The notes beneath the pieces are model-generated. The model was given only the letters and a program-made list of their open reading frames with translations. It was not told the origin of the DNA and did no database searches. The position numbers and the translations under genes are program-made. Below, one piece after another: positions 4,512-63,089 of a stretch of DNA of 64,000 nt; within the stretch, counting starts at the first letter, position 1; each line of letters starts with the position of its first letter. The stretch spans positions 868,001-932,000 of the forward strand of contig BCGN01000006.1 in the NCBI GenBank assembly GCA_001599295.1, in the 5' to 3' direction. This stretch comes from Sporopachydermia quercuum. Lineage: Eukaryota.

Positions 4512-6368
4512 ATGTCATCCAATAATAAGAAACGTCAATTAGATCAACCATCATCAATACCACCAGACAAGAAACAGAAAACGGCCGAAAGATCAGGTAT
4601 AAACGTTGATGATATTCTGGCAAAGGCAAAGTCTCGTGCTTTAGAAATTGCAAATGCCCAAAAGACGAAAGTTGGGAACTCTGCGAGCAATGAGAACACT
4701 AGTGACAATAGAAGTACTACGACTAGCACATCATCTACAAATACCAAAGCTCCAGGAAATGACCTCAATTCTAGAATTGCTGCCGCCAAAGCACGTTTAC
4801 TTGAAAAGCAACAGCTGAAAGAAAAACAGCAACAAGCCCAACAAAATCAGCAGCCACACCTGCTCAAATCTCAATCAATATATAATGAAGCGCCTAACAA
4901 GAAAACACCTGCTCAATTACTAGCAGAGGCATTATCGAACAATCAAACACCAAATGACATTTTGGAACAAGAATTATTATCTAAACCGAATAAAAACGCA
5001 AGAGAAAAAGCTGATGACGATTCAACAACTTCTAAAGATGAAAACGGAACCCCCAATCCTTATTTTGAACCGATTATTAGTAATAAGCATCAATCAANAA
5101 GGAAAGCATTTCATTTTAATCCTAAGGGGAAATTCATTGCTGAAGCTGAAGAATTACGTAGAAAACAAACAATTGAGGCAGAAATCAAACAACAGGAGCA
5201 ACAATATGAACCTGATGTTAGTATTGGCGAAAACGCTTACAGAATATCCAGACCTCCAAATATTGAATGGTGGGATGCCGATTTCTTAGCACTGATTAAC
5301 AAGCATTCATACAAGAATCTTACAATTGACGATCTTGAAGGAATAATAATAAAGGATCAATCTGATCCGGCTGGTGCTAAAAATGAAATTGCTCATGATC
5401 CTCTAATTACTTCCTATATTCAACATCCAGTGCCTATCAACGCTCCATGGGAAAAGCTACAACCAGCAGAGAAACCACTGTTCCTAACGAAAAAAGAACT
5501 AAAGCGAATACGACGAAATGAAAGAGCTGAAAGACAGAAGGAAAAGCAAGATAGAATACGGCTTGGTTTAGATCCAGCACCACCACCAAAAGTTAAACTC
5601 AGTAATCTAATGAATGTACTAACGAATGAAGCTATTAAGGATCCAACAAAAGTTGAAGCAAGAGTTAGAAAAGAAGTTGAAGAGAGAAGAAAAATTCACG
5701 AAGAAACAAACGAAAAGAATAAATTAACACCAGAGGAAAAACATGAGAAGTTTATGCGGAAGCTGAATAAGGATTTGCAGAAAGGTGTTTATTGTTGTGT
5801 TTTCAGAATTGAAAGGCTAGTAAATTCTAAGCATGAATTCAAGATTGATGTTAATGCTAAAGAGTTGTTATTAACTGGAATCACTTTAGTAAGTTATGAT
5901 GAAAATAGTCCTGATGAGACTTGTGATAATGATAAGATTAACAATGTCTGTAAATTTAGTGCTGTTATTGTTGAAGGGGGCCAAAAGGCCTTGAAAGCAT
6001 ATAAAAATCTAATGCTTAGAAGGATTAATTGGACAGAAAATGAAAAACCAAAGCGAAGAGTGAAACATGAAGAAGAAGCGGAGAGAGAAATCAAACAAGA
6101 AGAAGAGAAAGAAGAAGAAAAAGACATCAAGCAAGAGAATCAAGAAGTTAAATCGGAAAACGAAGAAGATTCAAAAGATTTCGATCTTCCTTTGGAGGAT
6201 TTAAGTGATAATAAGTGTACATTAGTATGGGAAGGTCAATTGGCACAGCCACTGTTCAAAAAATGGACAATTAGAAGGTTTCAGTCTGATGAGGAAGCAA
6301 TCGATATATTAATTAGAAATAAAGCTGATCATTATTGGAGAGAAATTAAGCATTTGCCAAGGGAATAG
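4512..6368 (+). CDS. PRP3: U4/U6 snRNP protein Prp3
   Basis: Motifs PPNIEWWD, YIQHPVPI, LTKKELKRIRR, RLGLDPAPPPKVKLSNLMNVL, FKIDVNAKEL and NKCTLVWEG. First ATG is at 4512. Confidence 0.95.
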   Translation: MSSNNKKRQLDQPSSIPPDKKQKTAERSGINVDDILAKAKSRALEIANAQKTKVGNSASNENTSDNRSTTTSTSSTNTKAPGNDLNSRIAAAKARLLEKQQLKEKQQQAQQNQQPHLLKSQSIYNEAPNKKTPAQLLAEALSNNQTPNDILEQELLSKPNKNAREKADDDSTTSKDENGTPNPYFEPIISNKHQSXRKAFHFNPKGKFIAEAEELRRKQTIEAEIKQQEQQYEPDVSIGENAYRISRPPNIEWWDADFLALINKHSYKNLTIDDLEGIIIKDQSDPAGAKNEIAHDPLITSYIQHPVPINAPWEKLQPAEKPLFLTKKELKRIRRNERAERQKEKQDRIRLGLDPAPPPKVKLSNLMNVLTNEAIKDPTKVEARVRKEVEERRKIHEETNEKNKLTPEEKHEKFMRKLNKDLQKGVYCCVFRIERLVNSKHEFKIDVNAKELLLTGITLVSYDENSPDETCDNDKINNVCKFSAVIVEGGQKALKAYKNLMLRRINWTENEKPKRRVKHEEEAEREIKQEEEKEEEKDIKQENQEVKSENEEDSKDFDLPLEDLSDNKCTLVWEGQLAQPLFKKWTIRRFQSDEEAIDILIRNKADHYWREIKHLPRE

Positions 6369-38468: not shown

Positions 38469-40271
38469 ATGGAGCCAAGAGATATTATCAACCAGCTGGA
38501 TTCATTCAACTCAACATTGTATAACATTAAATCCAAAGTATTCACTCTACCAGGAACAGCAATCATTTGGAGATATATTCAATCGTCATACCAGAATGAT
38601 CCAGTGCGCTCAGTGTTCGAACTATGCTTGGTTGTATTTGCTGTGAGATACTTTTTAGCTTCTAAATATTCATACAACAAACAACAATCCAATTTCATAA
38701 AGCTAAGTCCCTCAGAAATCGATGAACTAGTAGCTGAATGGGAACCAGAACCAATTGTCAAACCTCTAACTACAATCGAAGCCAACAAACTTGACTCAAT
38801 TCCTGTAATTAAAGGTCCAATTGGTCCCAAAGTCACGTTGGAATTGTCTGAGAAGAAAGCACAACTACTAGGTAACAAAGACAAATTGTTGACCGATGTA
38901 TTGAATTTTACGTCTGTTGATCAATTGAACTTCAGTAGACATCCCGAAATAACGTCCGTTTCTGTGAAGACTATTCGTGAGTATGGTGTTGGAGCATGCG
39001 GTCCACCAGGTTTTTATGGTTATCAAGAACCTCATCAGGAGATTGAACAAAAAATTTCCGAGTTTCTTGGTACTGAAGATGCTATTATATACGGTCAACA
39101 CTTCTGTACGCTTCCCTCTGTAATTCCTGCTTTTTTGAAAAGAGGAGACATTGCTGTAGTTGATTCGGGTTGCAATTTAGCCATTCAACAAGGATTGAAA
39201 CTTTCAAGATGTACAGTCAAATGGTATAAACACAATGATGTAGAAGATTTGAAAGCTAAAGTTGAATCTTGTCGAAATGTCTTTGAAGAAAAACCAGAAA
39301 CAAGAAGATACATCATAACTGAAGGCTTGTTTGAAAACTCTGGTGATTCTCCTGATTTGAAAGCTATGCTTGAACTCAAGTATAAATATAGGATTCGTAT
39401 TCTTCTGGATGAATCACTATCAATTGGCCTTTTGGGAGCTTCAGGCCGTGGTTTGGTTGAAGAAGCTGGGGTATCTCGTTCTGAAATAGACTTGACTGTA
39501 GGTTCCTTGGCAGGTGTTTTCTCCGGTTGCGGTGGATTCTGTGCTTCATTTGCTCCTATTGTTGAGCATCAACGTATCGGCGCAAACTCCTACGTGTTTT
39601 CTGCCTCTCCACCTAGTTATTCTATGAGATGTGCCNAAAAGGCAATGGAACTGATTGACGATAACCATGAAAAATTCCAAGAAAAAGGAAATGATTTCTT
39701 TTCAGTATTAAAACAACATGCTGCTTTTGTTTCGGAAAAAGTTGGAAAGACTGCTTTGTCGAAATATTTCGAAATTATCTCTAGACAGGATTCACCTATT
39801 CTTATGCTAAAGCTCAATTCGCAAATCAGACAAAAACTAGGGTTTCCCGACTCATACTCCGGCTCCGAAAACCGTAAGAACGAATCAAACAACAAGTTCA
39901 AGCCAAGTATAGAGATCCCTAGTTTCTATGAAGATATCTATGATGAGGAACATGATATCAACCTTTTTAATACTTTTGCCGGTTTGACAGAAATTGAATT
40001 CCAGTATTTGCTAGAATCCAAACTACTTCAAAAGATCATTAATAAGTTGGTTTATGAGCATAGCATTCTCGTTACTAAAGGCGAGAGAACTCTTCGACAC
40101 GAATCAGTAGATGTGATTGGAATTCCGTTAAAGGTCTATTTAGGTGTTGCTCAATCAGACGAAGATCTCAAGCGTTTAGTTGATAAACTTTTGGAAGTAT
40201 CGGAAGAAGTTTTGCAGGATGTTAGTGATATCGGCAAATCAGTGGAGAGAAGTTCCAAGCGATCTTCTTGA
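38469..40271 (+). CDS. LCB1: Serine palmitoyltransferase subunit Lcb1
   Basis: YIQSSYQNDPVRS, IDELVAEWEPEP, YGVGACGPPGFYG, SVIPAFLKRGD, LDESLSIGLLGASGRG and YVFSASPP. ATG is at 38469. Confidence 0.95.
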   Translation: MEPRDIINQLDSFNSTLYNIKSKVFTLPGTAIIWRYIQSSYQNDPVRSVFELCLVVFAVRYFLASKYSYNKQQSNFIKLSPSEIDELVAEWEPEPIVKPLTTIEANKLDSIPVIKGPIGPKVTLELSEKKAQLLGNKDKLLTDVLNFTSVDQLNFSRHPEITSVSVKTIREYGVGACGPPGFYGYQEPHQEIEQKISEFLGTEDAIIYGQHFCTLPSVIPAFLKRGDIAVVDSGCNLAIQQGLKLSRCTVKWYKHNDVEDLKAKVESCRNVFEEKPETRRYIITEGLFENSGDSPDLKAMLELKYKYRIRILLDESLSIGLLGASGRGLVEEAGVSRSEIDLTVGSLAGVFSGCGGFCASFAPIVEHQRIGANSYVFSASPPSYSMRCAXKAMELIDDNHEKFQEKGNDFFSVLKQHAAFVSEKVGKTALSKYFEIISRQDSPILMLKLNSQIRQKLGFPDSYSGSENRKNESNNKFKPSIEIPSFYEDIYDEEHDINLFNTFAGLTEIEFQYLLESKLLQKIINKLVYEHSILVTKGERTLRHESVDVIGIPLKVYLGVAQSDEDLKRLVDKLLEVSEEVLQDVSDIGKSVERSSKRSS

Positions 40272-40457
40272 AGTGTTCAATATGATATCGAATCTAATAG
40301 ATCAGAAAAAAATACCAATAGAAAATCAACAGACAGGAATATACCGCATCGATTGAACTAATAACAGTAACTTAATAATAACACTACTAATAATAATATA
40401 ACGTAATATAATAATTTTAATTGTTTTCATACTTTATTTATTGTAAATATTCCGTTT

Positions 40458-41147
40458 CTAGTGTTTGTAGTGTTTGTCCAGCAAAACTTGAATTGGTTCT
40501 GAAGACTTGACGTTAAGTTAGTAATTTATTCTTTATTCAACCATATCTACGATTGACGATGTCCCCAAATAGAGCTACCTAATCATAACAATTATCAAAC
40601 ATACCTTAATGAAATTAACAAATAATGAGTCCAAACTTTCCAACTCAACCTTCTTTGTTTTGTTTTCATCTAGTAATTGTAAACGCACGTTTTGAAGCTC
40701 CCGTCTTTGTAAGTACAGTTTCAGTCTCATTTGCTTTTCTTCCTCTAACCGCCTCAGATTATCTTCATGGTTTACTACTGGTCCAGCTGCTACTTTGGTA
40801 TCTATAAGTTCTTCCAAAGGCCTATACTTTTTGCAATTATCGATTTCTTGAGTCAAATGACGATTTCTGTATCTGATGTTTTGCTCTGTTAGTAGAAGTA
40901 AATCTACTTTCTCTTTTTCTTTCGCACTGTTCTCTTTAGCGGCATTAACTTGCTCTTGTATCTGTCTATTGTATAGCCTTAATATAGACAGTACACTATT
41001 AATATCTGCTTGCAGTTGAAGTTTTTCAGGAGAACTAGAAGTTGACCTGTTATTCAGTTCTTTATGTTGGTCCATAAGAGTTTTCAGCAGTTCAGTAGCT
41101 TGTCGAGCTTTGTCCACAATTATCTGTAGATTGTGATTCTTTGTCAT
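40458..41147 (-). CDS. Short THO complex subunit THOC5/FMIP-like protein; exons 41147-40605 and 40505-40458
   Basis: LRLYNR...KEKVDLLLLTEQNIRYRNRHLTQEIDNCKKY and LRRLEEEKQMR resemble the Thoc5 N-terminal coiled coil. The intron GTATGT...TACTAAC-11nt-AAG gives a C-terminus FIK-SSEPIQVLLDKHYKH*. Confidence 0.7.
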
Positions 41148-41771
41148 CGTGGAATGATGTAATGATATAAATTGTGAATTGTGGATTGTGCTTTGAGTCC
41201 TAAATCATTGTTACAACTACAATTTCTTTTTTGTGTTTGAAATTCAAATCAAACATTTTTGTGTCAACAAAATAAAAACTCTTTGAATACTTTTTGAAGA
41301 ATATCAAGATACAATGAGTAGGGAGACTTGATATTACCATATTATCTCCGAAATTTGCTCGTCCTTTACTTATTTATCCTCATCAACTCCAGCTGCTACC
41401 ATAAAGCACTTTTATGGCTAACAAAGAAAAATAGATTTATAGATTAACTATCTAAGCGTTTAATAACTAATGAATCCTCAAATATCCTTTAGGTAATCTT
41501 TGAAAATAGTTCAGAGATCATTTCTTAATATTATCCACCTTTTACAACCATATATCATCGTCTCCGTTTTATCTCCCAATCTCCGTTATTCCTAAGATAC
41601 AAAACCAAGTATTACACAGAAATAAATTCACACAAACATCCCACTTTACCTATGTCCCATCTACAAACACATCAAATAGCCGTCTACTTCTTTTCCTTGT
41701 CGCCTATCAAGACTTTAGTNCAGTACTTCAACACTGGTTCATCTCATGAAATACCATAAAACTGCATCTCA

Positions 41772-44256
41772 ATGTTAGAATCGTCTCCAGAATTATTCCA
41801 TATTCCAACTATAAGAGCTGAGTTGAGAAGTTCGGCTCAAACGCTTACTCAATTGTGTTTATATCAGGGCGCCAAATGGTAAGTATGATCTTCTATTGAA
41901 CGAGAATAATAACAACAATGATAGTAGTAGAATTAATAATAGTATGAGCAAACGTGAAGTCATTAAAAACGATTATATTATAGTCTTGTTGTTTTCTTCA
42001 TTGGGATCAAACTATGATACATTACTTATCTGATCTATGCTTATACAACATTGTGGACTTCGTTCATGTTGATACTAGCTATTGAATATAACCATTACTA
42101 ACTTCCATTACCTAATAGGTCCGCAGAAGCTTTGAATGGTCTAGAGACAATCTCGTCAGAAAATAGTACCAATTTTAGTCTGAAAACCAATCTCTCTGAT
42201 ATTCCTAGTGACCAAAAGCATATCTATAATGAAGAATTCACATTACGGTACTTTCAAAAGGAGACTGAATACAATGAAGCTGACAAAATACTACTAGCAA
42301 AGACATATTTCGACTGTAAGGAGTTCAAAAGAACTCAGCATTTACTACAGAAAGTCAAATCTCCTCGTGGAGTATTCTTACGCTTATATTCCCAATATCT
42401 TGCTGGAGAAAAGAAACGCGAAGAAGACAGTGAAGGTGTATTAGGACTTATGGACAATGTGACAATGAACTCTGAGTTAGGAAAGATTATGGAAAGCATT
42501 GATGATTTCACAGGTGATAAGCCATTGATTGATCCTTTTATTAATTATCTGTAAGTATTTGTTTCACTATTCATGCGCATCATTGATAGAATATGTTGGG
42601 TGTAAGTTTTATGAAGACTATGTTATATTAACCATATGGTGATAATTGTATTTTTGTTGATAATTATGATGAACAGAAAAGGTGTGATTCTGTTAAAGCA
42701 AAAAAATGAAAAAGCAGCTATTCAATGCTTGTTGATATCTGTAAAACAATTCCCATGTAATTGGAGTGCTTGGCAAGAGCTTTTAACATGTGTCGATGAT
42801 TTAGATATGGTGAGTATTTCTGTTGGTGGAGCATGTGAACACTAAAGAAAGGCAAGGAAAGGCAAGGAAAGGAACTGTGTGAGAGCTTCCGGTAGAAGCA
42901 CTAGTTTCATATTGTTATGTGCGTATCTGATGGGACAGTATGGGTACTATACTAAGATATTCTTTGCAAACTATACAAAAATAAGGCATGCTATAATATA
43001 CGGCGCAATTGTTTGTGATACTGTATGATAGTATAATCTGGTGTGCTTATGCTCTCATATCAATCTTCATTGGCTGCTGTATTTCACTCTCATTCTCATC
43101 ACAGTTCTTATTCTCACCCCTATTCCTATACCACACTACGAAGATACTAACTTAACAGATAATTGAACTAAGCAATAAACTACCAAAACATTTCATGTCA
43201 ATCATGTTCGAACTAGTTGCTTATCAAGAAGCATTCTCAAAATCAGATACAATGTTTCGACACTTAACTATGCTTGAATCAACTTTCCCTTCATTCCAAT
43301 TCTTAACTCTCCAAAAGGCTCTTCTAAGCTACCATAATTTAGATTACCCTGAATCAGAGCTTTTCTTCAATGAAATACTATCAAATGATCCTTACCGGTT
43401 AGATGAAATGGACGTCTATTCAAATATTCTCTATGTGATGGAGAAACAATCAAAACTGAGCTATTTAGCTCAAATTGCTTCCAGCACAGATAAATTCCGG
43501 GCAGAGACTTGTTGCATTATTGCCAATTATTATAGTTTGCGTTCCGAGCATGAGAAAGCTATTATGTACTATAGACGAGCTTTAACTATCAACAGAACAT
43601 GTTTAAGCGCCTGGACACTTATGGGACATGAGTTCGTTGAATTGAAAAACTCACATGCTGCTATTGAATCATATAGAAGAGCCGTTGATGCCAACAAGAA
43701 GGATTTCCGAGCATGGTACGGTTTAGGACAAGCTTATGAAGTATTAGATATGCATTATTATTCATTATATTATTATCAACGAGCAGCAGCATTGAAACCA
43801 CTAGATATGAGGATGTGGCAAGCAGTGGCAAATTGTTATGAGAACCTCCAACGTTATGATGAAGCTATCAAAGCTTGTTTAAGAGCTTTACAAGTATCAG
43901 ATTCTGACCCTGTAATGCTACATAAGTTAGGTCTATTATATGATAAACAGGGCTCTAAGAAAGATGCATATAAATATATGAAGAGCTGTTTAGACCAAGA
44001 GGAAGCTGAAGGAGTTACTGATGAGACAGTCAAAGCAAGACTATGGCTTGCTAAATACGAAGCTAAACAACAAAATTGGGAAGCTGTTTTTAATTATGCA
44101 AGTGATTTAGTTCATGGTACTCCAGTATGTATTTATGGTTGTTTATGCTTCAAACTTGTTTAGAACAATAGCAACTAACTGATTGAATAGAATGAACTAG
44201 AAGAAGCTAGAGCGTTATCAAGACAAGCAAGGAGCTCTTTGAATCATTTTAACTAA
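41772..44256 (+). CDS. CDC23: APC/C TPR subunit Cdc23/Apc8; exons 41772-41878, 42119-42550, 42677-42809, 43159-44124, 44191-44256
   Basis: LYQGAKW-SAEALNGL, LLAKTYFDCKEF, FPCNWSAWQEL, DPYRLDEMDVYSNILYV and AWTLMGHEFVELKNSHAAIESYRRAV. All four introns are GT-AG and preserve the frame. Confidence 0.93.
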
Positions 44257-45272
44257 TTAGAACCTCCTTGATAAAATAATGTCCTAAATTAGTGTAGGAG
44301 AAAGTCATAGAAAGAAAAGAACAGAGAAAGAAACAAGCATCTATCTTTCAAATGTTGAAATGTTCGGGTCATCCTTATAAGTGGTAGAGCAAACAAGAAA
44401 TGCTTTAGTTTAAACTACCATCAACACAATCGATAGTACTAAAGCCAAAAATCAATAAGATCTGTTTACAGGGTAGAAGCAATACCAATTATATGATAAA
44501 AGGTGTACATTAGGTGTCCTTTTTGTTGATGATATAGACCGACAGTCAAAATTCAATCCTGAAATGAATCGATAGATTCATTAAATTGAGGCTCGGTAAA
44601 ACCGGTACCGAAATCAGGAACAAAGCTTATTTTTTTCACTTAGGACTGAACCAAATAAAGACAAGTGTTATCTAGTGAGTTAATAGCGAAAAGCTAAGAA
44701 GAACTAGATATACTCAACTCCAGCGATAACATTTCTAATTCTAACCAAGTCATTAGTATACATATATTAACTTGTATCGAATGATCATATTCATGTGTCC
44801 CTTATTCCCTTATTTCGGACATATTCTTTATCATCTCCGGTAATGACTCCACATCTCATCCTGAAAATCCTCAAAACTCGTAATGGTGATGTTCTTCAAT
44901 GCCTCAAATTACTTCTAAGGCGTAAGATGCATACCGCCAATTTTCCATAATAAAAAAATAAATTACTTCCGTGCTCTTACAACTATTCTAATGAGCAGGC
45001 AATTAGCTATTGTAAGTGTAGTTTCGGAAGCCACAAAACATCCATCCGAAGTATCAGTATTTAATTCGGAACCCACAAACGTCAAGGTTTATTCTGAACC
45101 AGGAAATTTCCCGGATTCATGGGATTTGAGTACCCAACTAATGTGATCAAGAATCAAATTCAGTTCCGATTGTTTACTATACTCATTTCCTATTTAGTCC
45201 CGTTTTTTACCCGATTCAGTTAACTTTTGGAATCAAATTCAGTAATCACTCAGTAATATAGTGTTTTGTGTA

Positions 45273-48200
45273 ATGCCGAAAAACCCCCCACCTCCACCGC
45301 CTCCAGGGCGGTCCAATAAATCTGTGCCGCCCCCACCAGGTTCAAATCGGCTTGGTGCTCGACCCCCACCACCTCCCGGCGCTAGATCTTTCCCAGCTGG
45401 TGGCCCACCTCCAGTTAAGCCACCAGGACCTTCAAAAGGTCCAAAAGAAGCTCCAGAGGTACGCAAACGGAAACTAGCCGAGAAGAAACGCAAATGGCTC
45501 CTTCATCAGAAATCCCGGTTCGGAACCACAAAAAAGGTCAATCCATCCCGAATTCACCCCCAGAAAGCCGATATGCCACCCGAACACCTCCGGAAAATCA
45601 TCCGAGATCACGCCGACATGTCGGCTCGGAAATTTGCTGCCGATAAGCGCTCATATCTCGGAGCCCTGAAATACATGCCCCACGCAGTACTAAAATTACT
45701 AGAAAATATGCCCCAACCGTGGGAAAGTATGCGGGAAGTTAGAGTTTTGTACCATATTTCGGGAGCCATTACGTTTGTAAATGAAATTCCCCGAGTAATT
45801 CCTCCCGTTTATACCGCCCAATGGGCTACAATATGGTTAGCAATGCGGCGAGAGAAGCGGGACCGTCGGCATTTCAAACGGATGAGGTTCCCNCCGTTTG
45901 ATGATGAGGAACCTCCAATTTTGTGGTCGGATAANATTCAGGATGTGGAATTACCGGAAGCGGTAGAGTTAGAGCTCAACGAGGAAGAAGACTTGTCTAT
46001 TTTGGACTGGTTTTATGATCATCAGCCGCTTAGAGATGATCCCACGCACATTTTAGGCAGTAGTTACCGGAAATGGAAGCTGGAGTTGCCAGAAATGGCG
46101 AATCTGTACCGATTGGCTACTCCGCTTTTAACCGAGGGCAATAATCCCAACGCGGGGTATTTATTTGACAAAAAGGCCTTTTTCACGGCTAAGGCACTCA
46201 ATTTGGCAATCCCAGGCGGACCGAAATTCGAACCCTTGTACAAAGACGTCAATTCCGAAGACGAGGATTTTACTGAGTTCAATTCAATCGATCGGATCAT
46301 CTTCCGAATCCCCATGCGGACCGAGTACAGGGTCGCTTTCCCCTTTCTGTACAATTCATTGGCTCGATCAGTAGAAATTGCTGCTTACCATCATCCGGAT
46401 AACCTATTTATCCGAACAGACGACCCGGATCTCCCTGCTTTCCATTTCGACCCGCAGTTTAACCCGATTTCAGGTCGGAAAGTGCTCACTTCGGGCCCAG
46501 AAGCCGAGCTGACGGAAACAGCTGAGGAATTCACTCTTCCTGACGGATTCACCCCACTTTTATCCGACCAAAATTTAACTCCCGAGCATACAAATTCAGC
46601 CATTTCCTTGCTGCATGCCCCACATCCGTTTAACCGAAGAACGGGCAACACATGCCGAGCTCAAGACGTACCCCTCATTAAGAACTTCTATCTTGAGCCT
46701 TGCCCGGGCGGAAACCCCGCCAAAGTCCGCGTTTCATACCAAAAACTCCTCAAAACGTACGTTTTAACTGCCCTTCATAGTCAGGATCCCGCCAACTACC
46801 CCGCCTCCAAAACAAACCTTATTCGGTCCCTTCGGCAAACAAAGTTCTTCCAGCAAACATCGATTGACTGGCTAGAAGCCGGCTTACAAATATGCCGCCA
46901 AGGGTTCAACATGTTGAACTTGCTAATTCACCGAAAAGGGTTAGTTTATCTCCATTTGGACTTCAACTTTAATCTTAAACCGACTAAAACCTTAACTACA
47001 AAAGAGCGGAAACGATCCCGTTTCGGAAACGCATTTCATCTTATGCGGGAGATTCTCAAGACTATTAAGCTTTTAGTAGACGCGCAAGTTCAATACCGAT
47101 TAGGAAATATAGACGCGTTCCAACTGGCAGACGGAATTTACTATATTTTTAACCACTTAGGACAATTGACTGGCATTTACCGGTACAAATATAAAGTTAT
47201 GCATCAAATCCGAGCCTGTAAAGATCTGAAACATGTGATTTATTACAAATTCAACCGAGGCATCGGCAAAGGTCCGGGCTGCGGCTTTTGGCAACCGGCT
47301 TGGCGCATTTGGATCTTTTTTCTCCGGGGTATTCTTCCCCTTTTGGAAAGATGGCTCGGCAACTTATTGGCCCGGCAATTCGAAGGCCGCCATTCAAATA
47401 CCGTGGCGAAAACTATCACAAAACAAAGAGTCGACTCCTATTACGATTTAGAGCTAAGAGCCGCGGTTCTTAACGACATCTTAGACTCAATACCCGAGGG
47501 TATTCGTCAGAATAAGGCTAAAACGATTCTCCAGCATTTATCCGAAGCTTGGCGGTGTTGGAAAGCCAATATTCCTTGGAAAGTTCCGGGATTACCCGCN
47601 GCTATAGAGAAAATCATCCTTCGGTACGTTAAGGCTAAAGCCGACGGGTGGATTTCTGTGGCGCATTATAACCGAGATCGGATTAAGCGCGGAGCCACAG
47701 TGGACAAAACCGTGGCTAAGAAGAATTTGGGCCGGTTGACGCGGCTGTGGCTGAAAGCGGAACAAGAGCGCCAGCAAGGTTTCCTTAAAGATGGGCCATT
47801 TGTGACTTCGGAAGAGGCCGTGGGCATTTATTCCCAAATGGTGCAATGGCTTGAATCTCGGAACTTTAATCCTATCCCGTTCCCTCCTCTTAGTTACAAG
47901 CACGACACGAAATTACTTGTTTTGGCCTTGGAGGCGCTTAAAGAGTCGTACTCGGCAAAAGCTCGGCTTAATTCCTCGGAACGGGAAGAATTAGCGCTTA
48001 TCGAAGCCGCCTACGACAACCCGCATGAATGTTTAGCGCGGGTGAAACGGTTTTTGCTCACCCAGCGGGTATTCAAAGAGGTTTCTGTGGATATGATGGA
48101 CCATTATTCGCATATTAACCCGGTTTATTCTGTTGATCCGTTAGAAAAGATCACAGACGCGTATTTAGATCAGTATTTGTGGTATGAAGGGGAGAAGCGG

Positions 48201-51200
48201 AGTTTATTTCCCAATTGGGTCAAGCCTTCCGATGGCGAAATTGCCCCACTTTTGGTGTACAAATGGTGCCAGAGCATTAACGGGCTGAATAACGTTTGGA
48301 GCAATGAAGGAGGGGCATGTGGGGTAATGGTACAAACCGAATTAAGCAAATTAACCGAGAAAATCGACTTTACTCTCCTAAATAGGCTTTTGCGGCTAAT
48401 CATGGACCCTAATTTAGCAGATTACATTACTGCTAAAAACAATATTGCCCTCTCGTACAAGGACATGAACCATATTAACCAATACGGATTGATCCGAGGT
48501 TTACAGTTTGCCGGATTTGTATGGCAATTTTACGGTTTATCCGTCGATTTGATGCTTTTGGGACCTATCCGAGCCGCAGAAATAGCCGGGTTACCGGATG
48601 ATCCTAATGGATTTGCCGAGTTTAAATCCCTGGAAACCGAAACTGGACATCCAATTCGGTTATATACCCGGTATTTGGATAAAATTCACTTGTTTTTAAA
48701 GTTCGATTCGGAAGAAGAATGCCGAGAGCTTATTCAACGGTACCTTGCCGAAAATCCCGACCCGAACGGGTCCAATATCCTTGGCTATAACAACAAGAAG
48801 TGCTGGCCTCGGGATTCGCGGATGCGGCTTATCCGAAATGACGTGAATCTCGGAAGAGCCGTGTTTTGGCAGCTGAAAAACCGGTTGCCGAGGTCGGTTA
48901 CCTCACTGGAATGGGAAGATTCGCTCGTTTCTGTGTATTCAGCCGAAAATCCTAACTTAATTTTCTCCATGCTCGGTTTCGAAGTCCGGATTTTGCCCAG
49001 AAGCCGAGAATTANCCGCTTCCTCGGCTAAAGAAGGCGTTTGGGACTTAATACACCCAGAAACTAAAGCTAAAACAGCATCGGCTTATCTTAAAGTGTCA
49101 CAAACAGAAATCGATCAATTCAGCAACCGCATCCGGCAAATCTTAATGTCGTCCGGGTCCACCACGTTTACAAAAATCGCTAATAAGTGGAATACGGCAC
49201 TTATTGCTCTGCTTACGTATTACCGAGAAGCCGCTATTTCGACCGAAACCTTATTGGACGCGCTTGTTAAAGCCGAAACCAAAATTCAAACCCGAGTGAA
49301 AATGGGTCTGAATTCTAAAATGCCATCCCGGTTTCCCCCGGCCGTGTTCTACACGCCTAAAGAACTCGGAGGCCTTGGCATGCTTTCCGCGTCTCATGTG
49401 CTAATTCCGGCTTCTGATCTCCGATGGTCCAAGCAAACCGACACCGGAATCACCCATTTCCGATCGGGAATGTCTCATGAGGATGATAAAGTTATCCCCA
49501 CTTTGTTCCGGTACATCCCGAGCTGGGAATCTGAATTCCGAGACTCCCAGAGAGTTTGGGCCGAATATGCCATAAAAAGGGCCGAAGCGGCCCAGGAAAA
49601 CCGAAGATTGGCTTTAGAGGATCTTGAAGATTCCTGGGACCGAGGAATTCCTCGGATTAATACTTTATTCCAGAAAGATCGCCATACCCTCGCTTATGAT
49701 AAAGGCCACCGGATCCGAACCGTGCTGAAACAGTATACATTGCCGCGGGTAAATCCGTTCTGGTGGACCTCGGCTCGGCATGATGGAAAACTGTGGAACC
49801 TTAATTCATACCGAACGGACATTATTCAAGCTTTAGGCGGAATTGAAACCATTTTAGAACACACTTTATTTAAAGGTACCGGATTCGGGTCATGGGAAGG
49901 CCTATTTTGGGAAAAAGCTTCCGGGTTTGAGGACAGTTTACAGTTTAAAAAGCTTACAAACGCTCAACGATCGGGACTGTCCCAAATCCCAAATAGAAGA
50001 TTCACCCTGTGGTGGTCTCCTACAATTAACCGAGCTAACGTTTATATCGGCTTTTTGGTCCAATTGGACCTAACGGGTATTTTCCTGCACGGAAAGATTC
50101 CTACGCTCAAAATCTCCCTAATTCAGATATTCCGGGCCCATTTATGGCAAAAGATCCATGAAAACGTGGTTTACGATTTGTGTCAAGTGCTGGATGGGGA
50201 AATTGAAGCGCTAGAAGTGGAAAGCGTAGAGAAAGCAGCAATTCATCCGAGAAAGTCGTATAAAATGAATTCTTCCTGTGCCGATATAGTGATTTTGCCA
50301 CGGTTCCGCTGGCCCGTGAACGGCAAACCTAGTTTATTGTATGACGAGGAAACCGGAAACGATGGGTCCGTGGCGATTTCGGAAAAGATGTGGATAGACG
50401 TTCAGCTAAGGTACGGAGATTATGACTCCCACGACATTTCTCGGTACATCCGAGCCAAATTCCTCGACTATACATCTGACCCAAGCTCAATATATCCGAG
50501 CGGAACCGGAGTTATGGTTGGAATAGATTTAGCGTATAACATCCATGATGCATTCGGTAATTGGATCCCCGGTTTAAAACCGTTGATGAGAGAGGCAATG
50601 AAAAGTATAATGCGGAACAATCCGTCTTTGTACGTTCTTCGGGAGCGGATCCGCAAAGGACTTCAATTGTATCAATCTCAACCCCAGGAGGCGTTCCTAA
50701 ATGCCCAAAACTATCAGGAATTGTTCAATTCGGACATTCAACTGTTCATTGATGACACAAATGTTTACCGAGTTACAGTACACAAAACTTATGAAGGAAA
50801 TTTGACCACAAAACCTATAAACGGAGCCATATTCATATTTAATCCCAAATCGGGTCAATTGTTCCTCAAAATAGTCCACAGTTCCGTCTGGGCGGGCCAA
50901 AAACGGCTGGGCCAGCTGGCAAAATGGAAAACCGCGGAAGAAGTTGCCGCATTAGTCCGGTCTCTGCCTAAAGAGGAACAACCTAAACAGCTGATTGTTA
51001 CCCGAAAGGGAATGCTAGACCCTCTCGAAGTTCACATGCTTGACTTCCCCAATATAAGCATCAGACCCTCAGAATTACAGTTGCCGTTTCAAGCGGCAAT
51101 GAAACTGGAAAAGATCCAGGAGCTAATTTTAACCGCCACGGAACCTAAAATGGTGCTCTTGAACCTGTTCGACGACTGGCTAAATACAGTTTCTGCTTAT

Positions 51201-52469
51201 ACTGCATTTTCCCGGCTTCTATTGATCCTCCGGGCGCTGCATGTGAATGCGGAGAAGGCTAAGTTGATCCTTCGGCCCGAGAAGTCGGTAATCACAGAAG
51301 AAAATCACATGTGGCCGTCATTCTCGGATGAGGAATGGATGCGGGTGGAAGTTTCCCTTCGGGACATGATTTTATACGATTACGGCAAGAAAAACAATGT
51401 GAATGTGGCGTCATTAACCCAGAATGAGATCCGGGATTTGATTTTAGGCCAGGAGATCCGAGCTCCATCAGCTAAACGGCAGGAACTAGCCGAGGAAGCT
51501 GGAAACGGCACCGGAAACGGCACCGGAAACGGAAATATATCTGACGTGGGACAAATCTCGGCTATTAAGACTAAAGGAGTCAACGTACACGGAGAAGAAG
51601 TGATTACGTATACAACATCTAACTATGGACAGCAAACATTTGCATCTAAAAACGAATGGAGAAACCGAGCGATCTCGGCAACAAGTTTACATCTAAGGGC
51701 TAAGAATATATTTGTTCCGAAAGATTCCGAAATTGACCCGGAGACNTTTACGTACATCTTGCCTAAAAACATCCTTAAGCGGTTTATACAGATTGGAGAC
51801 CTTCGGGTCCAAATAGCCGCGTTTATATTTGGGGTTTCCGTTAAAGAGAATCCTCGGATTAAGGAGATCCGAGCCGCGGTCTTAGTACCTCAATTGGGAA
51901 ATAACGTTTCGGTAAAATTCCCTAATTTAACCCCCGAAGATGACTCATTACTTGCCGGATTAGAACCATTAGGCTTGATGCACACGGATGGGGTAGAAAA
52001 TGGGGAAATATTGCCTAATGAGGTAATCATGATGGGTAAACTGAATTCCCAAAACGACAAAGTATACACAAATAACTCGCTTGTATTACCCGTTGCTTTC
52101 ACCCCCGGTTCCATTACCATTTCAGGCTATTCAGTTACGGAATCTGGACTAGAATGGGGCAAAAACAACCAAAATACCCCACTTATCAATCCTGAAACAG
52201 GAACTATTCCCGGTTTTGATCCCGAATTCGGTAAACCCTGCCAAATCTTATTATCCGATAGAATTAAAGGCTTTTTCTTAGTCCCCAAAACCGGTATTTG
52301 GAACTACTCATTTTTAGCCGCGGCTTGGACACCCAATATAGAATACAGTCTGAAATTAGACACTCCATTGCCTTTCTATCACCAATTGCATAGACCTACG
52401 CATTTTATTGCGTTTAATAACTTGGAAGATAATGAAGCTGAAGTTGAAAAGGAGAATTATTTCGCTTGA
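45273..52469 (+). CDS. PRP8: Spliceosome core protein Prp8 (no intron, no intein)
   Basis: ~2400 aa with a Pro-rich N-terminus, [53 protein letters not shown], RNase H-like DDTNVYRVT and a C-terminal MPN-like domain. Confidence 0.98.
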
Positions 52470-54314
52470 TTCAGCGAATAAGAGAGGTTATTTTTAGTTA
52501 TGCGGTAGATGTACAGGGAACCTCGGAATAGAAAATACGGGATTGAAAAGAATGTCGTAAAAGAACGGAATGGAGCGGAACTTAACAGTCAGATCTGAGA
52601 TTGTATACAGATTGGTACTTCGGGTTATTTTGATACAGCACAGAAAGTATCGGGATTGTGGGATCATTTAGAAACTTAATATAGTAAATGGAATAATCTA
52701 AGATTTGTAATTGCCTTCGTATCATAGTTTTATTGTAATATTTGCGTGAACTAGCATAACGTATGCAACTTGGTGAATGCTAGTATTGAAATTTGGGACA
52801 TGGTAGGAGTATATGCATGAATAATGCATTGAGATGTATTATTTGGAAGTTGTGCATACTATTGATTAGGACTGCATATAGACTACATTTGCAACTCGGC
52901 ATATAACCACATGACCCATGTTTGTTGTTAATGAAAGCAACCAGTTTTTAAATGTTTTCACAGTTTTGAATAAAAATCTGAACTCAATAGCGGAGTTTTC
53001 ACCCCAGTTTTATAGTGAAAATAACAAGTATTCTACTTCTACTAATCACCGATAGTTGCACCCATAAAAATCATTAAAGTTTGAACACCTTGCATAATTA
53101 TACAGTAAAATCTCAACTTTATTCATGCTCCTTTCAAATGTCATGTGCTGTGTTCTTTATACATACTATATTGTATGATAGAAGTAAAAACTTAACTACG
53201 GTGAAAAGGTGTGTTTTAAGAAGGGATAATGATCTTGCTTTTTATTTATGTCCTTTCTTGTTAATAAAACAGTGTAACATACAACGAACTTCGATGACGT
53301 GCTGAATAAAGTTTGATGATTCAATGCAATAAATATGCAGATCAAACCTTTTTCAAACCTTTTAGAATTGCCGGTTCTAAAATGTTAAGTATGCTAATTC
53401 ATTGAAATGACAGCCTGAACAGATTGTTATCGTATAATAATTCTGTTTGTTCTTAGTGAGGTTTTGATTACTGTTAACATTGAAATGAACGATGAAGTAA
53501 CTGCTAAAATCTACTTATACGAATAACATAAACAGTGTACGTATATTTCTTTCCAGACATTCCTATTTAAAGTTACAGATTTTTGCGTAGATCTGTCCTG
53601 AGATGCATAGTTTTATATCACTTAACTGATTATTTACTATGTACTGGTACTTGCTCAAATAACTCATTGAATGACGAGAAATCAGTCGACTGTTTAGTAG
53701 TAGAAGTAACTATACTGTACACATAATTTGTATTATTTTTTAGTTATTTCAACCTTTATTTAATGATTTTTAAGGCTCACTATTTAATTTTCATTTCCTG
53801 CACATTTTCTGCACTGACTCCAACTTAAATATTTATTTACATGTATAGCTCATACGGCTTTTTACCATTTTTTTCTTACTTTTTTTTGTACTTTTCTTGT
53901 CCTATTCAATTTCTTTTAATCCCGTAAAAAGAGAAACAGCAGAAGTAAATGGAAAATAATAACCGAGATTTATTCAACCCGGGGAAGAACACCGGTTCTT
54001 GTAGTGTTCATCACTTGACTCGACTATCCGTTTTGGTAGAATATTAGCATGGATGATTCCACTGAACTACGTTCTGTAGTATCAGCATCAACAGACTTCA
54101 TTGCAAGCGGAACATCCGCTTCGGCTTCCGAGATGGTTCCAGAAACAATCTCGGAAACATCTTTGGCTATTCCCAGCTCCACTATTGGTTCAAGCAACTC
54201 CGAACTGCCTAAAAGTACCGAAAATTCTCCTTTATGTATGTCCTTTCTTTTCAGTCTCAACAGTTTCACCACCTATCCTCACGGTGTGTATTGCCATTTG
54301 CCATTATTAGCATT

Positions 54315-57300
54315 ATGTCTACTGCTATTTTACTAACAAAAGAACCGACAGGCAATGAATTATTTGATGCCATAAAAGATATAAGACGCCTGGGGCTCAG
54401 CTTTTATGATATAATCAAAGGATCGCAAGTGAATGGTGAGTTTCTACGCAAATGTTATCTGATGTTGGATTTGGCAGTGCCCATAGATATCGGAAACAAT
54501 AACGGAAGCAATATCGGCGATAATAGTAGAAATAATATCGGAGCGGAAGATCCATCAGCCTTAAGAACTCCCGATGTGGCCGCAGCCCAGAGAATTGATA
54601 AAATGTATGCTAGTAACTACTCAACGCCGGTTCCTCCCAATGGTAATTTTACGCCACAGCTGACAACTTCCGACTTTAAACTCCTAGCCATGGTTTCCCC
54701 TTCCGCTCCAATCTCAATAACAACCTCAACCACAAATTTAGCCGCAACCGCGGACCAAAATCCTCGGAAACGGAATAAATTCGGCTCCAATAACAATTGG
54801 CTCAAAGACTTAATTATTCCTATCAATGATGACGAATTTAACGACGATATCAACATTGATTCTTCTATCAGTAGCTCAATCAAACATGTAACCTCCATTA
54901 CAACTGTTTCAGCTCCTTCAACTGCTTCATCAACAACTTCATCAGCACCGTCTAAAGTCATACCTAATAAACGTTCATACACAGATGGCGCTACTTATAG
55001 TAATACCGGAACGCCAAGTATTAGTATTAACGGCTCATCTACGAACTTATCAAGGCAATCATTGCGCCAAAAGGAAGAGGAAATTAAAAGGATGAGCGAA
55101 CGGATTGCCGCGCTGCTGGCCAATAAGAAACGGCTGCAGGAAGCGATCAAGGAGAAGCGGAACGGGAGGAACAGCGGGGGGAATGGTGGGGAAGAGTTTA
55201 CTGAGGAAGAGGGGGAAAGTGGGGACAGCGGGGAGAACACGGGGAAGATGTCGGTTGAACCCGAGAATAAAACTGGAGAAGATAATGAGGCAGAAGAGGA
55301 TAACNGAAATGTTAATGATGATTTCAATAGCGCTAGTAGTATTAGCAGTAGTAGTAGCAATAACGGGAATAATACTAAAGAATCAACTCCAGTTTCAAAT
55401 ACCAACCCCATCATTGCAGCACACTCTCCCCCTAGTTCTTCAAACCCTAATTTACGGCTTTACCGCTCTAAGTTATCAAAACTTCAAAACCAGCAGTCTT
55501 CATTACGGAAACTATTCACAGCAAGCAACGACAATATTACCGGGACCAAACGGAAAATATTGGAAGCGAAATCAATACTGGAAATGATAGAAACAAATAT
55601 TAACAAACAGGAGACTATACTACAAGAGCTTAATGAGAAAAGACGGAAAACTTTACAAGAGTTGAAAGTGTATAATGACACGTTGAACGTTCAAGAGGAG
55701 TTTTTAATGAGCAAAGCAGAATTTANTCAGGATATTGAAAGAGAAATAGATGATCTTCGGAAGGAAATTCTGGTGTTGGAGGAGAAAGAGGAGAATGTGG
55801 GAAAGATGAAAATAGAAGAAGACATAACAGAAATTGAAAGTAGAGTTGGAGGGCAAACGACCAGAGATATTACGGAGANGGTACCCCAGAGTACGGGAAC
55901 TATATTAAGTGAGGATGGTATGTAATGGGTTTGTAATTTGATTCGGTGAACATGAAATTCAGGAACTGAAATGAATATTTAGCAATTGGTCTAAATTAAC
56001 GGAAGAAATAATGGAAGAAATAGNGAAAACGATAGCGGAANCGGAATCGGATATGCAATGTATTTTCAGAGTACAATGAATGTCTTACATATTATAACAA
56101 TAGTAACTGCCTGCATATTAAATCATTCATTCATCATTTGTCTGCTTTAATGGAAGATTATGTGATTTTGCTGCTTAGATGCATAGAAGGTGGGAGGTAA
56201 AGTGTTGAGGATGTCAAGAAAGAGCCAAGAATCAGAGCACAAGACAAAGATAAAGACAAAAACGTATGAATTGCAGCTACAAGTTGTTGTTTATGCTGTT
56301 TGCTTTATGATTTGTCTCCCACAGCTGTTGATTTCCTTTTCCTTTAGCACAAACTGTACATTTTTAGCTTGATAACGGCGTACTTCATGCTATCCGCAGT
56401 GTTTAGAATTTAATCTAAGATGCTAGAGCAAGCATAGAAGTTTTGGTGAAACTGAAAGAATAAGAAAACGCGTGTGTAACAATTCTGAAACTGCAGGATA
56501 GTTTATGCTATGATTTTCTTGTTTCTGCTGTATTTTTCGTTGCTATTTTCATTTTTTCCGGGATTGTTCTCGCTGCTTCCGTTGATGTTGACTACGGAAG
56601 TTTTACTCATAAACTTGATGGTTTACTAACTGAAAATATGCAATAGTTAATGAAAATATTAAAAACGATTCAATTGAATTTAATACTGTGAAAAGTGATG
56701 AGATAGTGGATGATAGTTCGATTCCAGCAACAACGGCGAGAGAGCAGCGAACTGTTCGTTATTTTAATGGGGAGAGCAATGATAATAGCAGTACTAATAA
56801 AAGCAAGGTCACCAATAGTAATAATGAAAATGCGAATAATATTAATGNAAAGAATAAGAGCAATATTGCCATGAGAAACGTTGTTACTAATGAAATGTCT
56901 CAAGAGGAACTAACTGATGAAGACGAGAATGAAGTTGACTCAACTGATTTAATTAAAACTGATAATAGTAATAGTGCTAATGATAAGAGTATTAGTATTG
57001 TTGGCAATAATGATAGTAGTAGCAATATTTTAAAAGATGGTGTTAACGCTGATGACAATAAATTCAATTCAGTTGAGAAGGTAAGTGAATAATTTCTTGT
57101 ATTTTGAGGGACTATGGAAAGCAGATAAAATAAGGATGATATTCCGGAAACGATACCGAATACTGGAACTAGTAGCAGGATATCTAGGAATAATGAAGCA
57201 AACACTAGAGATAATGCAGTAACTACTGGAAATAGTATATCGGAAACTACGAGAAACAATGTCCTACAGTTGTTTATATTTATACACTTGAAACAAACTT

Positions 57301-57960
57301 CAAAATGATAGTTTCAACTGCTCTTATAAAGTACTTGCAAATAGTGCAAATGTTTAGTTGGTATGGTGGTAAGACTACATTAAGCGGGCTTCAAATACAA
57401 GAATGATGCAATATGATAGGCAGGCACCCACAGTTATTCAGCTTATCCACAATTCCTTTATCATTTTTTCTTATATTGTTCTTTATTTTCCACTAACAAA
57501 TCTAAAGCCACAAGTTTCTCTTTTCACTCCTTATATTTCTCCATTGAAATGCTTTAAATCCTTCAGATTCAGCCCATTTTTTGGTTACGTCAGTAAATCA
57601 GGACTCAGATCATCAACTTGGAGCAATACTATCAACCCTGATGGTATTGTATGCAGTGACGAACTATTTGATGGAAAATGCCAAAACACTTCTTGTATTT
57701 ATCAGCATTTGTCCGACTGTATAATGGATGGAACTGAGATACTAGTAGATTTAGCTAAGTGTACGGTTGGAAAGGATAGTAATGAATATAAATCAAATCT
57801 GAGTAAAGAATTGGAGCAAGCAGGTGCTGAGTGTGATGATTTTGATTTACTAAGTCGAATAATATTGGATTTTCGCAGAAAGCATATTGAAGATAATCAG
57901 TACTTAGACTGGAAAAAGTTTGGGTCTTTATGGAAGAAAGAAAAGAAGTTTGAGAGATAA
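54315..57960 (+). CDS. Red1/ZFC3H1-like zf-C3H1 protein (MTREC/PAXT-type exosome adaptor); exons 54315-55917, 56647-57080, 57508-57960
   Basis: The last exon encodes FTPYISPLKCFKSFRFSP...SSTWSNTINPDGIVCSDELFDGKCQNTSCIYQH, a zf-C3H1 signature. Introns GTATGT...TACTAAC..TAG (55918-56646) and GTAAGT...CACTAAC..AAG (57081-57507) join three ORFs in frame. Confidence 0.75.
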
Positions 57961-63018: not shown

Positions 63019-63089
63019 TGCGTCAGCCCGGAGTCGAACCGGGGGCTCTTCGATGGCAACGAAGAATTTTACCGCTAAACCACTAACGC
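63019..63089 (-). tRNA. tRNA-Gly(GCC), intronless
   Basis: GCGTTAGTGGTTTAGCGGTAAAATTCTTCGTTGCCATCGAAGAGCCCCCGGTTCGACTCCGGGCTGACGCA folds as a cloverleaf with a GCC anticodon and GGTTCGA T-loop. A T5 Pol III terminator follows at 63015-63011. Confidence 0.97.

Follow-up and report, generated by a model that had tools for sequence, protein, structure and literature searches.

Genes of budding yeasts can fall into a higher- and a lower-GC3 class (GC3, GC content at third codon positions) that differ by more than 0.1, and in the available text of the study describing them these two codon-usage classes are clustered, independent of expression, and treated as the product of a non-adaptive nucleotide bias (Cope & Shah 2022, PMC9246145). 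The left arm of chromosome C of Lachancea kluyveri is a GC-richer segment with its own codon usage in an otherwise uniform genome, and is interpreted as introgression in the available portions of the corresponding reports (PMC4271529, 10.1101/539148, PMC3590768). Here, the essential splicing gene PRP8 of the yeast Sporopachydermia quercuum was analyzed within a 64-kb window (contig BCGN01000006.1, positions 868,001 to 932,000 of the forward strand; "the window" denotes this whole stretch), and was found to hold two separable layers, a general rise of GC3 and a dense scatter of CCG/CGG triplets. The triplet excess was confirmed as real, as stronger than first described, and as exceeding both codon choice and base composition. 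Intragenomic heterogeneity of codon usage is known in yeasts, and the locus represents an unusual variant of it: the regions of Cope and Shah comprise tens to hundreds of genes, whereas a single gene, or a stretch of 600 nt, is the unit here, and the borders fall at the coding sequence (CDS), and sections 7 and 8 of their paper contain no CCG/CGG rule, no codon-junction effect, and no non-coding component, while the codons for Lys, Glu, and Gln (K/E/Q) are static in the present case (PMC9246145). Unlike the L. kluyveri arm, which as described in the same available portions measures ~1 Mb, the units here measure 0.6–8 kb, and trees and synteny carry no foreign sign.

The present locus and vertebrate CpG islands (length >200 bp, GC >0.5, CpG observed/expected (o/e) >0.6) are alike in that CpG is non-depleted at the kilobase scale in a CpG-depleted genome, partly over promoters. 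In PRP8, CpG o/e was above 0.6 and above the genomic background (0.97–1.24 versus ~0.65), and GC stayed below 0.5 (0.446–0.474 per kb); the locus differs from such islands in its GC of 0.46, in the coverage of the whole 7.2-kb open reading frame (ORF), and in that only CCG/CGG-type CpGs are enriched. Very-short-patch repair of E. coli acts in a short context through T-to-C changes, raises its own motif, and mimics selection; that skew is bacterial, genome-wide, and tied to the Dcm motif CCWGG, whereas the skew here is local, eukaryotic, and concerns CCG/CGG. The Zn2Cys6 zinc-cluster domain is the fungal archetype of a CGG-reading protein. Its half-sites resemble the present pattern in having a CGG unit on either strand, in similar TCGG/CGGA flanks, and in that clusters occur here in two promoters, and differ from it in being fixed-spacing promoter pairs, whereas here hundreds of unspaced triplets run through an ORF. 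A preference for CpGG is ascribed to some CXXC domains, the readers of vertebrate CpG islands. For gene-scale CCG/CGG enrichment in a yeast, no description was found among the papers listed by targeted literature searches, judged by titles and abstracts.

The base composition of the window was that of AT-rich yeast DNA (~0.35 GC), and 15 other ORFs of at least 200 amino acids (aa) each were used for comparison. A CpG was counted as CCG/CGG-type when preceded by C or followed by G, and all remaining CpGs were counted as plain. For synonymous shuffling, codons were permuted among positions in such a way that neither the protein nor the codon counts of the gene changed (300 or 500 shuffles), with ten genes (18 kb) pooled as background. 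Counts in non-coding flanks were compared with all equal-size background non-coding windows within the 64 kb. PRP8 genes from elsewhere were represented by 78 loci on metagenome contigs (60–72% identity), a small sample with few yeasts; PRP8 was an intronless ORF at 52 of the loci, of which 33 also had neighbouring ORFs.

PRP8 was located at 45273–52469 (+ strand) as an intronless CDS of 2398 aa in which 7/7 Prp8 Pfam domains were found, and it forms the main island of the triplet signal. Its CpGs lay within CCG/CGG in 306/423 cases, compared with 343/969 in the background, and base composition predicts a fraction of 0.41. Along the window, CCG/CGG-type CpGs rose from about 1–5 per 500 nt in the background to 15–30 in PRP8, with plain CpGs at 3–13 throughout, and the o/e of CGG plus CCG from base composition was 1.83–2.27 in PRP8 windows and 0.21–1.27 in background windows. 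CpG o/e increased from ~0.65 to the island level given above, with no rise in GpC o/e (0.77–1.24). The initial annotation of this DNA, made from the letters alone, had proposed a regional DNA-level signal superimposed on the gene and a GC-richer domain over 44800–52660, and had named an equal rise of other CpG contexts and of GpC as grounds for abandoning the idea; plain CpG and GpC were both flat. Its proposal stands for the CCG/CGG layer, and falls as a single GC-richer domain, the GC3 rise being restricted to the CDS.

With 500 synonymous shuffles, 235.5±7.0 CCG/CGG-type CpGs were obtained, compared with the 306 present in PRP8. With 300 shuffles, CCG was found 181 times versus 132.8 (z score 7.2), CGG 173 times versus 144.7 (z 4.8), and CCGAG 34 times versus 9.1 (z 9.2), the signal being strand-symmetric, with CCG and CGG about equally enriched on the sense strand, and TG was under-represented (352 versus 393.8, z -5.2). 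The ten pooled background genes behaved oppositely, with CG at 387 versus 451 (z -5.5) and TG at z +6.6, and their CCGAG count was at the shuffled level (6 versus 5.7). In the whole window, CCGAG/CTCGG occurred 88 times versus 39.5±5.9 in whole-window shuffles, and 54/88 of these occurrences fell in PRP8. The top enriched words were CCGA/TCGG, CGGA/TCCG, CCGG, and CCGAG/CTCGG, and each of the four parts of the islands had CCGA/TCGG, CGGA/TCCG, and CCGAG/CTCGG as its leading words. A pyrimidine stood at position -1 in 65–91% of island sites versus 49% in the background, and A was frequent after CGG. The signal was level across the 7.2 kb of PRP8 with no decay away from promoters, and the triplets showed no 3-nt periodicity, helical phasing, or preferred spacing (flat pooled distance histogram, no spectral peak in PRP8). 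An apparent ~21-nt stepping of triplets upstream of PRP8 was gone in the pooled distance histogram.

The preference extended across codon borders. At PRP8 third positions, the fraction C/(C+T) was 51/73 where C makes CGG (before GGN) and 62/83 where C makes CCG (xCY before G), compared with 61/136 for plain CpG and 414/903 away from CpG, and the same four classes in other genes gave 0.23, 0.16, 0.19, and 0.26–0.31 (Fisher p for the junction contrast, 2.7e-6 in PRP8 and 0.88 in other genes). C preceded 34/39 of the CGA codons of PRP8, a strong preference unique to this PRP8 in the comparison set, and among CGR codons CGG made up 49/54 after non-C and 19/53 after C (p 1.9e-9). Proline CCG was not commoner when G came next (12/22 versus 26/50), and it follows from this and from the Arg context that each CpG tends to take one strong flank, a second one adding nothing. 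Since the preference spans codon junctions, three frames, both strands, and the flanks, it cannot be generated by codon selection at the tRNA level; shuffling, junction classes, and flanks each showed more than codon identity alone provides, as the first reading had argued from the flanks. Codon reassignment was rejected (at conserved columns, CGG was Arg in 47/50, CGA was Arg in 26/26, and CTG was Leu in 19/22 cases). RNA structure formed by complementary CCG/CGG or CCGAG/CTCGG words was also rejected, folding energies being no lower than in codon-shuffled controls beyond what other genes showed (mean z of local folding -0.26 over 94 windows in PRP8, -0.19 to +0.48 in five other ORFs).

The same rule was followed in the non-coding DNA on both sides of the gene. 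Upstream, the promoter/5′ leader at 44540–45272 carried CGG/CCG on both strands, and within 44800–45272 CCG/CGG contained 11/14 CpGs; these 11 CCG/CGG-type CpGs in 473 nt compare with a null mean of 2.98 and a maximum of 8 (869 windows). Downstream, in the probable 3′ untranslated region/terminator at 52470–52700 (+ strand), 7/9 CpGs lay in CGG, all on the + strand, and 7 in 231 nt compare with a null mean of 1.46 and a maximum of 5 (992 windows). The crowding of these words reported earlier on either side was recovered, with 5 CGG and 8 CCG among 14 CpGs at 44800–45230, and 7 CGG and 0 CCG among 8 CpGs at 52500–52660. GC in the flanks was 0.37 upstream and 0.41 downstream, a small excess of the size of the triplets' own contribution, and no general GC enrichment of the region's non-coding DNA was found (0.34–0.36 in CDS-adjacent 250-nt windows, 0.30 in the spacer downstream). 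The GC-rich segment of L. kluyveri is GC-rich throughout, non-coding DNA included.

Several further elements were recorded in this non-coding DNA. A direct repeat, TTCGGAANCCACAAA, was present exactly at 45023–45037 and 45065–45079, 42 nt apart, upstream of PRP8 (2 matches versus 0.03 expected), and a TTACCCG word ~60 nt before the PRP8 ATG is presumably Reb1-like. Palindromic tight CGG/CCG groups were found in the upstream regions of PRP8 and of a second marked ORF (CGGTAAAACCGGTACCG at 44594–44609 and GCGGAACATCCGCTTCGGCTTCCG at 54108–54131), and we take them to look like binding sites of the zinc-cluster type. TGCAT/ATGCA and GCATA words were clustered at 52760–52900, 300–430 nt past the PRP8 stop codon, and ATGCA/TGCAT occurred 18 times in island non-coding DNA versus 7.2 expected from background frequency.

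Confinement of the signal to 44800–52660, as first proposed, did not hold, and the signal recurred at 53854–56150 and at about 851–1800. Past a background-like spacer at 53001–53850 (3 and 5 CCG/CGG-type CpGs per 500 nt, GC 0.30), a CGG/CCG cluster at 53854–54233 held 13 CCG/CGG-type and 2 plain CpGs in 380 nt (null mean 2.40, maximum 6, 915 windows), upstream of a Ser/Asn-rich, coiled-coil-like ORF of 563 aa at 54234–55925 (+ strand), which forms a second, weaker island. GC3 of this ORF was 0.40 and its CpG o/e 0.90, CGG made up 11/27 of its Arg codons, and 41/64 of its CpGs lay in CCG/CGG; third-position C was used at 12/21 CGG-making, 8/12 CCG-making, and 9/38 plain CpG sites, and 11/11 CGR codons were CGG, with 0 preceded by C. 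No Pfam match was found for it, and the Atlas gave no match of at least 0.9 (best 0.83). The remaining patch lay at 1051–1650 (+ strand, 600 nt) in the 3′ part of TOM1, the ORF of which (1–3093) is open at the window edge and matches Tom1 residues 2659–3287 (E 1.9e-258). It contained 28 CCG/CGG-type versus 7 plain CpGs, 46.7 per kb of the CCG/CGG type, compared with 14.3 and 8.3 per kb in the remainder of the ORF; GC3 in the patch was only 0.34–0.40, with no clear rise, and C preceded 6/9 CGA codons of the ORF. Together, the islands make up 17% of the window, yet hold 52% of its CCG/CGG-type CpGs. A mark on very long genes, as one early suggestion had it, receives support from the patch in TOM1, itself a very long gene, and is contradicted by the marked 563-aa ORF and by ORFs of 768 and 789 aa in the window, which are without triplet signal.

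The general synonymous shift was evident in PRP8 as a GC3 of 0.482 (0.247–0.399 in the 15 other ORFs) and a CpG o/e of 1.11 (0.36–0.90 in the same ORFs). The 1-kb windows of 45001–52000 (n=7) had a GC of 0.446–0.474, compared with 0.29–0.42 in the rest of the window, and in 250-nt steps GC went from 0.36 before the ATG to 0.55 after it, and was again 0.36 from 52250. The 149 Arg codons were CGG 68, CGA 39, AGA 19, CGC 13, AGG 7, and CGT 3, whereas AGA accounted for 21/36 Arg codons in PRP3 and 13/25 in LCB1. The initial annotation had been right about this difference in Arg coding, and its supporting details were reproduced: the string CGG CGA GAG AAG CGG GAC CGT CGG has its first base at 45846 and is in frame with PRP8, and the hand-counted lines have 34/60 G+C (47701–47760, PRP8) and 20/60 G+C (5641–5700, PRP3).

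At four-fold sites, PRP8 used A, C, G, and T at.23,.26,.26, and.24, compared with ~.36/.12/.10/.42 in other genes, and 49% of its Y-ending two-fold codons ended in C versus 23–39% elsewhere. C-ending codons were up in almost every Y-ending family, GTG was also up, GTC and AGC were nearly static, and GGT, CCA, and AGA were less used. K/E/Q codons ended in G in 126/393 cases versus 383/1351 elsewhere and were therefore unshifted, and the TTA/TTG balance was unchanged, so that a shift from A/T to G/C (W-to-S) was seen at four-fold and Y-ending sites and not at every class of free site. In this first layer, then, synonymous sites have moved to C, and to G where a CpG results. The layer is restricted to the CDS, since flank GC is raised only by about the triplets' own contribution. 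GC3 and the few AGR codons were distributed evenly along the gene, and a mosaic structure within PRP8 was accordingly rejected. As a separate observation, AAAAAA was avoided on the sense strand (1 versus 11.7 shuffled in PRP8, 16 versus 45.6 in ten other genes), although AAA is the main Lys codon.

Comparison with PRP8 genes of other eukaryotes separated the two layers further. The CCG/CGG context ratio was 1.77 here versus 0.66–1.28 (median 0.83) in the 52 other intronless ORFs, and at the level of whole loci it was 0.60–1.12 among the 78; a composition matching a known donor was found in none of them. CGG+CCG o/e reached at least 1.6 in 11/2019 1-kb windows of the comparison loci, with no gene-long run, and in the nearest yeast loci (L001, L003, L010, L065) plain CpGs outnumbered the CCG/CGG type throughout. 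The triplet pattern is thus lineage-specific among the PRP8 genes compared. A PRP8 GC3 of at least 0.10 above that of every neighbour was found at 4/33 loci (L006, L017, L051, L077), because of which the GC3 excess by itself is not unique; no CCG/CGG context signal was present at these four, and three AT-rich, AGA-using loci (L002, L047, L057) had no PRP8 GC3 excess. A GC3 excess as a general property of PRP8 was largely rejected on these counts. Separately, the PRP8 gene of L017 (10001–17159), from a very AT-rich eukaryote, had a GC3 of 0.38 versus 0.18–0.26 in its neighbours, a CpG o/e of 1.66, and Arg codons almost confined to CGT (72) and CGA (69), with 1 AGA, without CCG/CGG context bias, and is a different kind of compositional excess. 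The only other multi-kb CCG/CGG signal in the 1.07 Mb of comparison DNA lay outside PRP8 on fungus-like contig sequence (L014 20001–25000 and L015 20001–21000; GC 0.32–0.37, context ratio 1.5–2.1).

The ancestry of the gene was assessed from its closest matches, from trees, and from gene order. Prp8 was 71–72% identical to its closest matches (Lipomyces, Geotrichum, Pachysolen, Blastobotrys) and LCB1 41–54% identical to its own, from which it follows that the database contains no close relative of the organism. Quick LG+G4 trees were built for Prp8 (35 rows, with 34 of the 120 matches listed) and for LCB1 (32 rows, with 31 of the 120 matches listed). Both trees agreed on a branching point for the window's sequence that follows Lipomyces and the yeasts of Dipodascales type and precedes the remaining clades, with 98% support each in the Shimodaira–Hasegawa-like approximate likelihood ratio test (SH-aLRT); PRP8 was thus not discordant with its neighbour, and no grouping with a GC-rich donor was found among the lineages sampled, which comprise no close relatives, so that a donor inside the same order stays compatible with these trees. 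The linkage of a tetratricopeptide repeat (TPR) gene, LCB1, and PRP8 was common to the window (38469–52469) and yeast locus L002 (2820–17023; TPR identity 58%), and an ORF at 57403–57960 had a homologue downstream of PRP8 in locus L001 (19824–20036). The TPR gene is presumably SGT2-like, and the linkage is a micro-synteny of old standing that spans deep yeast lineages. The sole tRNA gene in the window was a tRNA-Gly(GCC) at 63019–63089 (- strand).

No flanking repeats or mobile-element ends were found around the PRP8 island, only short chance matches, and neither a new insertion site nor mobile-element scars were seen for PRP8. Two studies, one of 2016 and one of 2023, provide contigs (64 kb and 75 kb) that each span 45936–56023 unbroken with no base differences; both are labelled as one and the same organism, and the window itself may derive from either. 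One assembly has a 12-nt in-frame gap at 51501 inside PRP8, and two runs of other organisms yielded only short pieces <90% alike to the window. Taken together, trees, synteny, and the two assemblies make distant transfer and assembly artefact unlikely, and the low rank given to introgression when the locus was first annotated agrees with the concordant trees and the conserved neighbourhood. Within the protein, Gly, Ala, Arg, and Pro (G/A/R/P) made up a share of 0.248, the highest of 23 Prp8 orthologues, with 36 gains and 20 losses of these residues among lineage-specific replacements at conserved columns, and the share in LCB1 was 0.190, of AT type. This amino-acid shift fits any long-standing DNA-level pressure, including residence in a GC-richer genome.

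The reading that we favour, with a probability of roughly one in three, is that a selection-like pressure acts in situ on duplex DNA in favour of CGG triplets that do not overlap, and that a CGG-binding factor reads them. In this reading PRP8 is native to the lineage, was inherited vertically, and sits in its ancestral neighbourhood, with both layers imposed in place. The triplet layer is independent of frame, strand, and coding status, with the free position usually completing CCG/CGG (YCGG, often followed by A) and one triplet per CpG being enough. It extends over the flanks of PRP8 (~500–700 nt upstream and ~200 nt downstream), the neighbouring ORF and its promoter, and 600 nt of TOM1. Such a pressure would favour a high density of triplets, most likely because a putative CGG-reading protein, or some structural feature of CGG steps, would mark these units; speculatively, the chromatin of a very long gene, or its transcription, could be what the mark acts on. 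The anatomy and statistics of the islands, the vertical descent and synteny of PRP8, and the lack of the pattern in the other PRP8 genes compared are shown by the data, and selection, as opposed to repair bias, as the force, and the identity of any reader, are what we infer from the pattern. In the available text of a mutation study, few contexts mutate more readily than CCG/CGG in S. pombe, and the same is stated there for S. cerevisiae by citation (PMC4704713), so that in yeasts as measured there neutral mutation should erode the triplets and is an unlikely source of them. A broader version is put forward tentatively, with the odds clearly against it, namely that a budding-yeast lineage possesses a previously undescribed DNA-level marking. 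Hundreds of YCGG triplets, scattered evenly, would coat selected transcription units (here all 7.2 kb of PRP8) by way of synonymous sites, codon junctions, and flanks, and would be maintained despite mutation because a chromatin or repair factor reads CGG.

Several points weigh against selection for CGG triplets. The analysis covers one 64-kb window of a roughly 17-Mb genome, and ~300 weakly selected sites in one gene need a large effective population size. The rise of third-position C and of GTG in the first layer is not accounted for, and neither is the marking of the 563-aa ORF and of 600 nt of TOM1 but not of PRP3 and others. An array of Zn2Cys6 sites would have a CGG unit on either strand, as found here (CCG z 7.2, CGG z 4.8), together with fixed spacing or orientation, which was absent in PRP8, and the flanks were without dominant spacing; the CGG pairs thus lack the preferred spacing or orientation expected of dimeric zinc-cluster factors. 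The deficit of CGG after C is also seen in PRP8 of several other eukaryotes (L015, 1/16 versus 9/28). The gain of G/A/R/P residues reaches non-synonymous sites, and is at least as natural under a mutational or conversion bias. Finally, a fixation bias that is specific for CCG/CGG would be formally indistinguishable from selection.

Such a local, non-adaptive fixation bias is possible, if rather doubtful. It would act in units that are hot for recombination or heteroduplex repair, with mismatch correction favouring G/C and especially CpG in CCG/CGG, as a eukaryotic analogue of very-short-patch repair or as conversion driven by a T:G glycosylase, and would make the locus an extreme, gene-scale member of the higher-GC3 class. 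The reversed CpG/TpG balance (TG z -5.2 in PRP8, +6.6 in background genes) speaks for it, as do the effects on non-coding flanks and non-synonymous sites, and the clustered GC3 gene classes of Saccharomycotina, two in number, are ascribed to non-adaptive bias or biased gene conversion in the available text (PMC9246145). However, the W-to-S shift is not general, as seen from K/E/Q codons and the TTA/TTG balance, flank GC equals background once triplets are discounted, the spacer at 53001–53850 is at background level, and the signal is even over 7.2 kb without promoter-centred decay. After C, moreover, CGA outnumbers CGG (34 versus 19), although W-to-S change would turn CGA into CGG. We know of no enzyme with a CCG/CGG flank preference, which is counted against such a bias. 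With K/E/Q unshifted, flanks AT-rich apart from the triplets, and CGA exceeding CGG after C, plain GC-biased conversion is disfavoured, and the plain local gene-conversion regime suggested at the outset is a poor fit.

Foreign origin of the islands is considered unlikely. An unsampled, fairly close, GC-richer and CCG/CGG-rich relative would have contributed tracts of 0.6–11 kb by introgression, or by homeologous conversion after hybridisation. A genome split into two sharply distinct classes of composition, non-coding flanks included, tract-like sizes, a patch with both borders within TOM1, and the GC-type G/A/R/P share of Prp8 (0.248) beside the AT-type share of LCB1 (0.190) would all be expected from it, and a precedent exists in the GC-rich 1-Mb arm of L. 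kluyveri, as presented in the available text (PMC9246145). This origin is opposed by the concordant Prp8 and LCB1 trees (98% SH-aLRT each), by the linkage shared with L002 and L001, by the lack of flanking repeats or mobile-element scars, and by the absence of a donor-like signature among the 78 other loci (0.60–1.12); homologous replacement between genomes so unlike in codon usage would probably also need recombination in poorly matching DNA, and the unexplained CGG rule would merely be relocated to another genome. The window contains 38 isolated single Ns (~0.6 per kb; e.g. 445, 45893, 45935, 47600, 49014, 51746, 55305), which could reflect heterozygous sites of a diploid that were masked as ambiguous. 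Islands (8 in 11.6 kb) and the rest of the window (30 in 52.4 kb) were alike in the density of Ns, and this too is counted against a foreign origin.

Selection at the level of translation or of the mRNA is improbable. In its translational version, slow rare codons (CGG, CGA, CCG, GCG, TCG) and accurate C-ending codons would pace or proof-read the synthesis of 2398 aa; in its mRNA version, GC would shield a 7.2-kb transcript from premature termination or decay. Limitation of the first layer to the CDS, the rise of C-ending codons in nearly all Y-ending families, the avoidance of A-runs in PRP8, and the sense-strand restriction of CGG in the 3′ flank (7 versus 0) are in keeping with it. The triplet rule, however, crosses codon borders and is obeyed on both strands of the upstream flank, CCG and CGG are similarly enriched on the sense strand, and K/E/Q codons are static. 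GGT, CCA, and AGA would be expected to be favoured (optimality as in S. cerevisiae), and their use declines in PRP8. Avoidance of A-runs is general (z -4.1 in background genes), RNA folding of PRP8 is ordinary (mean z -0.26), and the pattern is absent in the PRP8 genes of 52 other eukaryotes. A chimeric assembly, or a yeast contig to which contaminant DNA had been joined, would account for the sharp compositional borders, and is dismissed as having next to no probability, given the contigs of two studies that each cover 45936–56023 in one piece, borders that match gene units, yeast-like synteny, and a Prp8 that is a budding-yeast sequence by its tree.

Heterogeneity of codon usage in yeasts is now modelled as variation in GC bias; at this locus the variable is a trinucleotide, at the scale of a single gene, and it includes codon borders and non-coding DNA. 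If selection for CGG triplets is the true cause, a reader of CGG arrays not known so far would exist, together with a new constraint on the synonymous sites of an essential gene, and the broader marking, if true, would amount to a sequence code that works at the scale of genes and apart from the genetic code. If repair or conversion bias is the true cause, the locus would instead reveal a eukaryotic counterpart of motif-driving short-patch repair.

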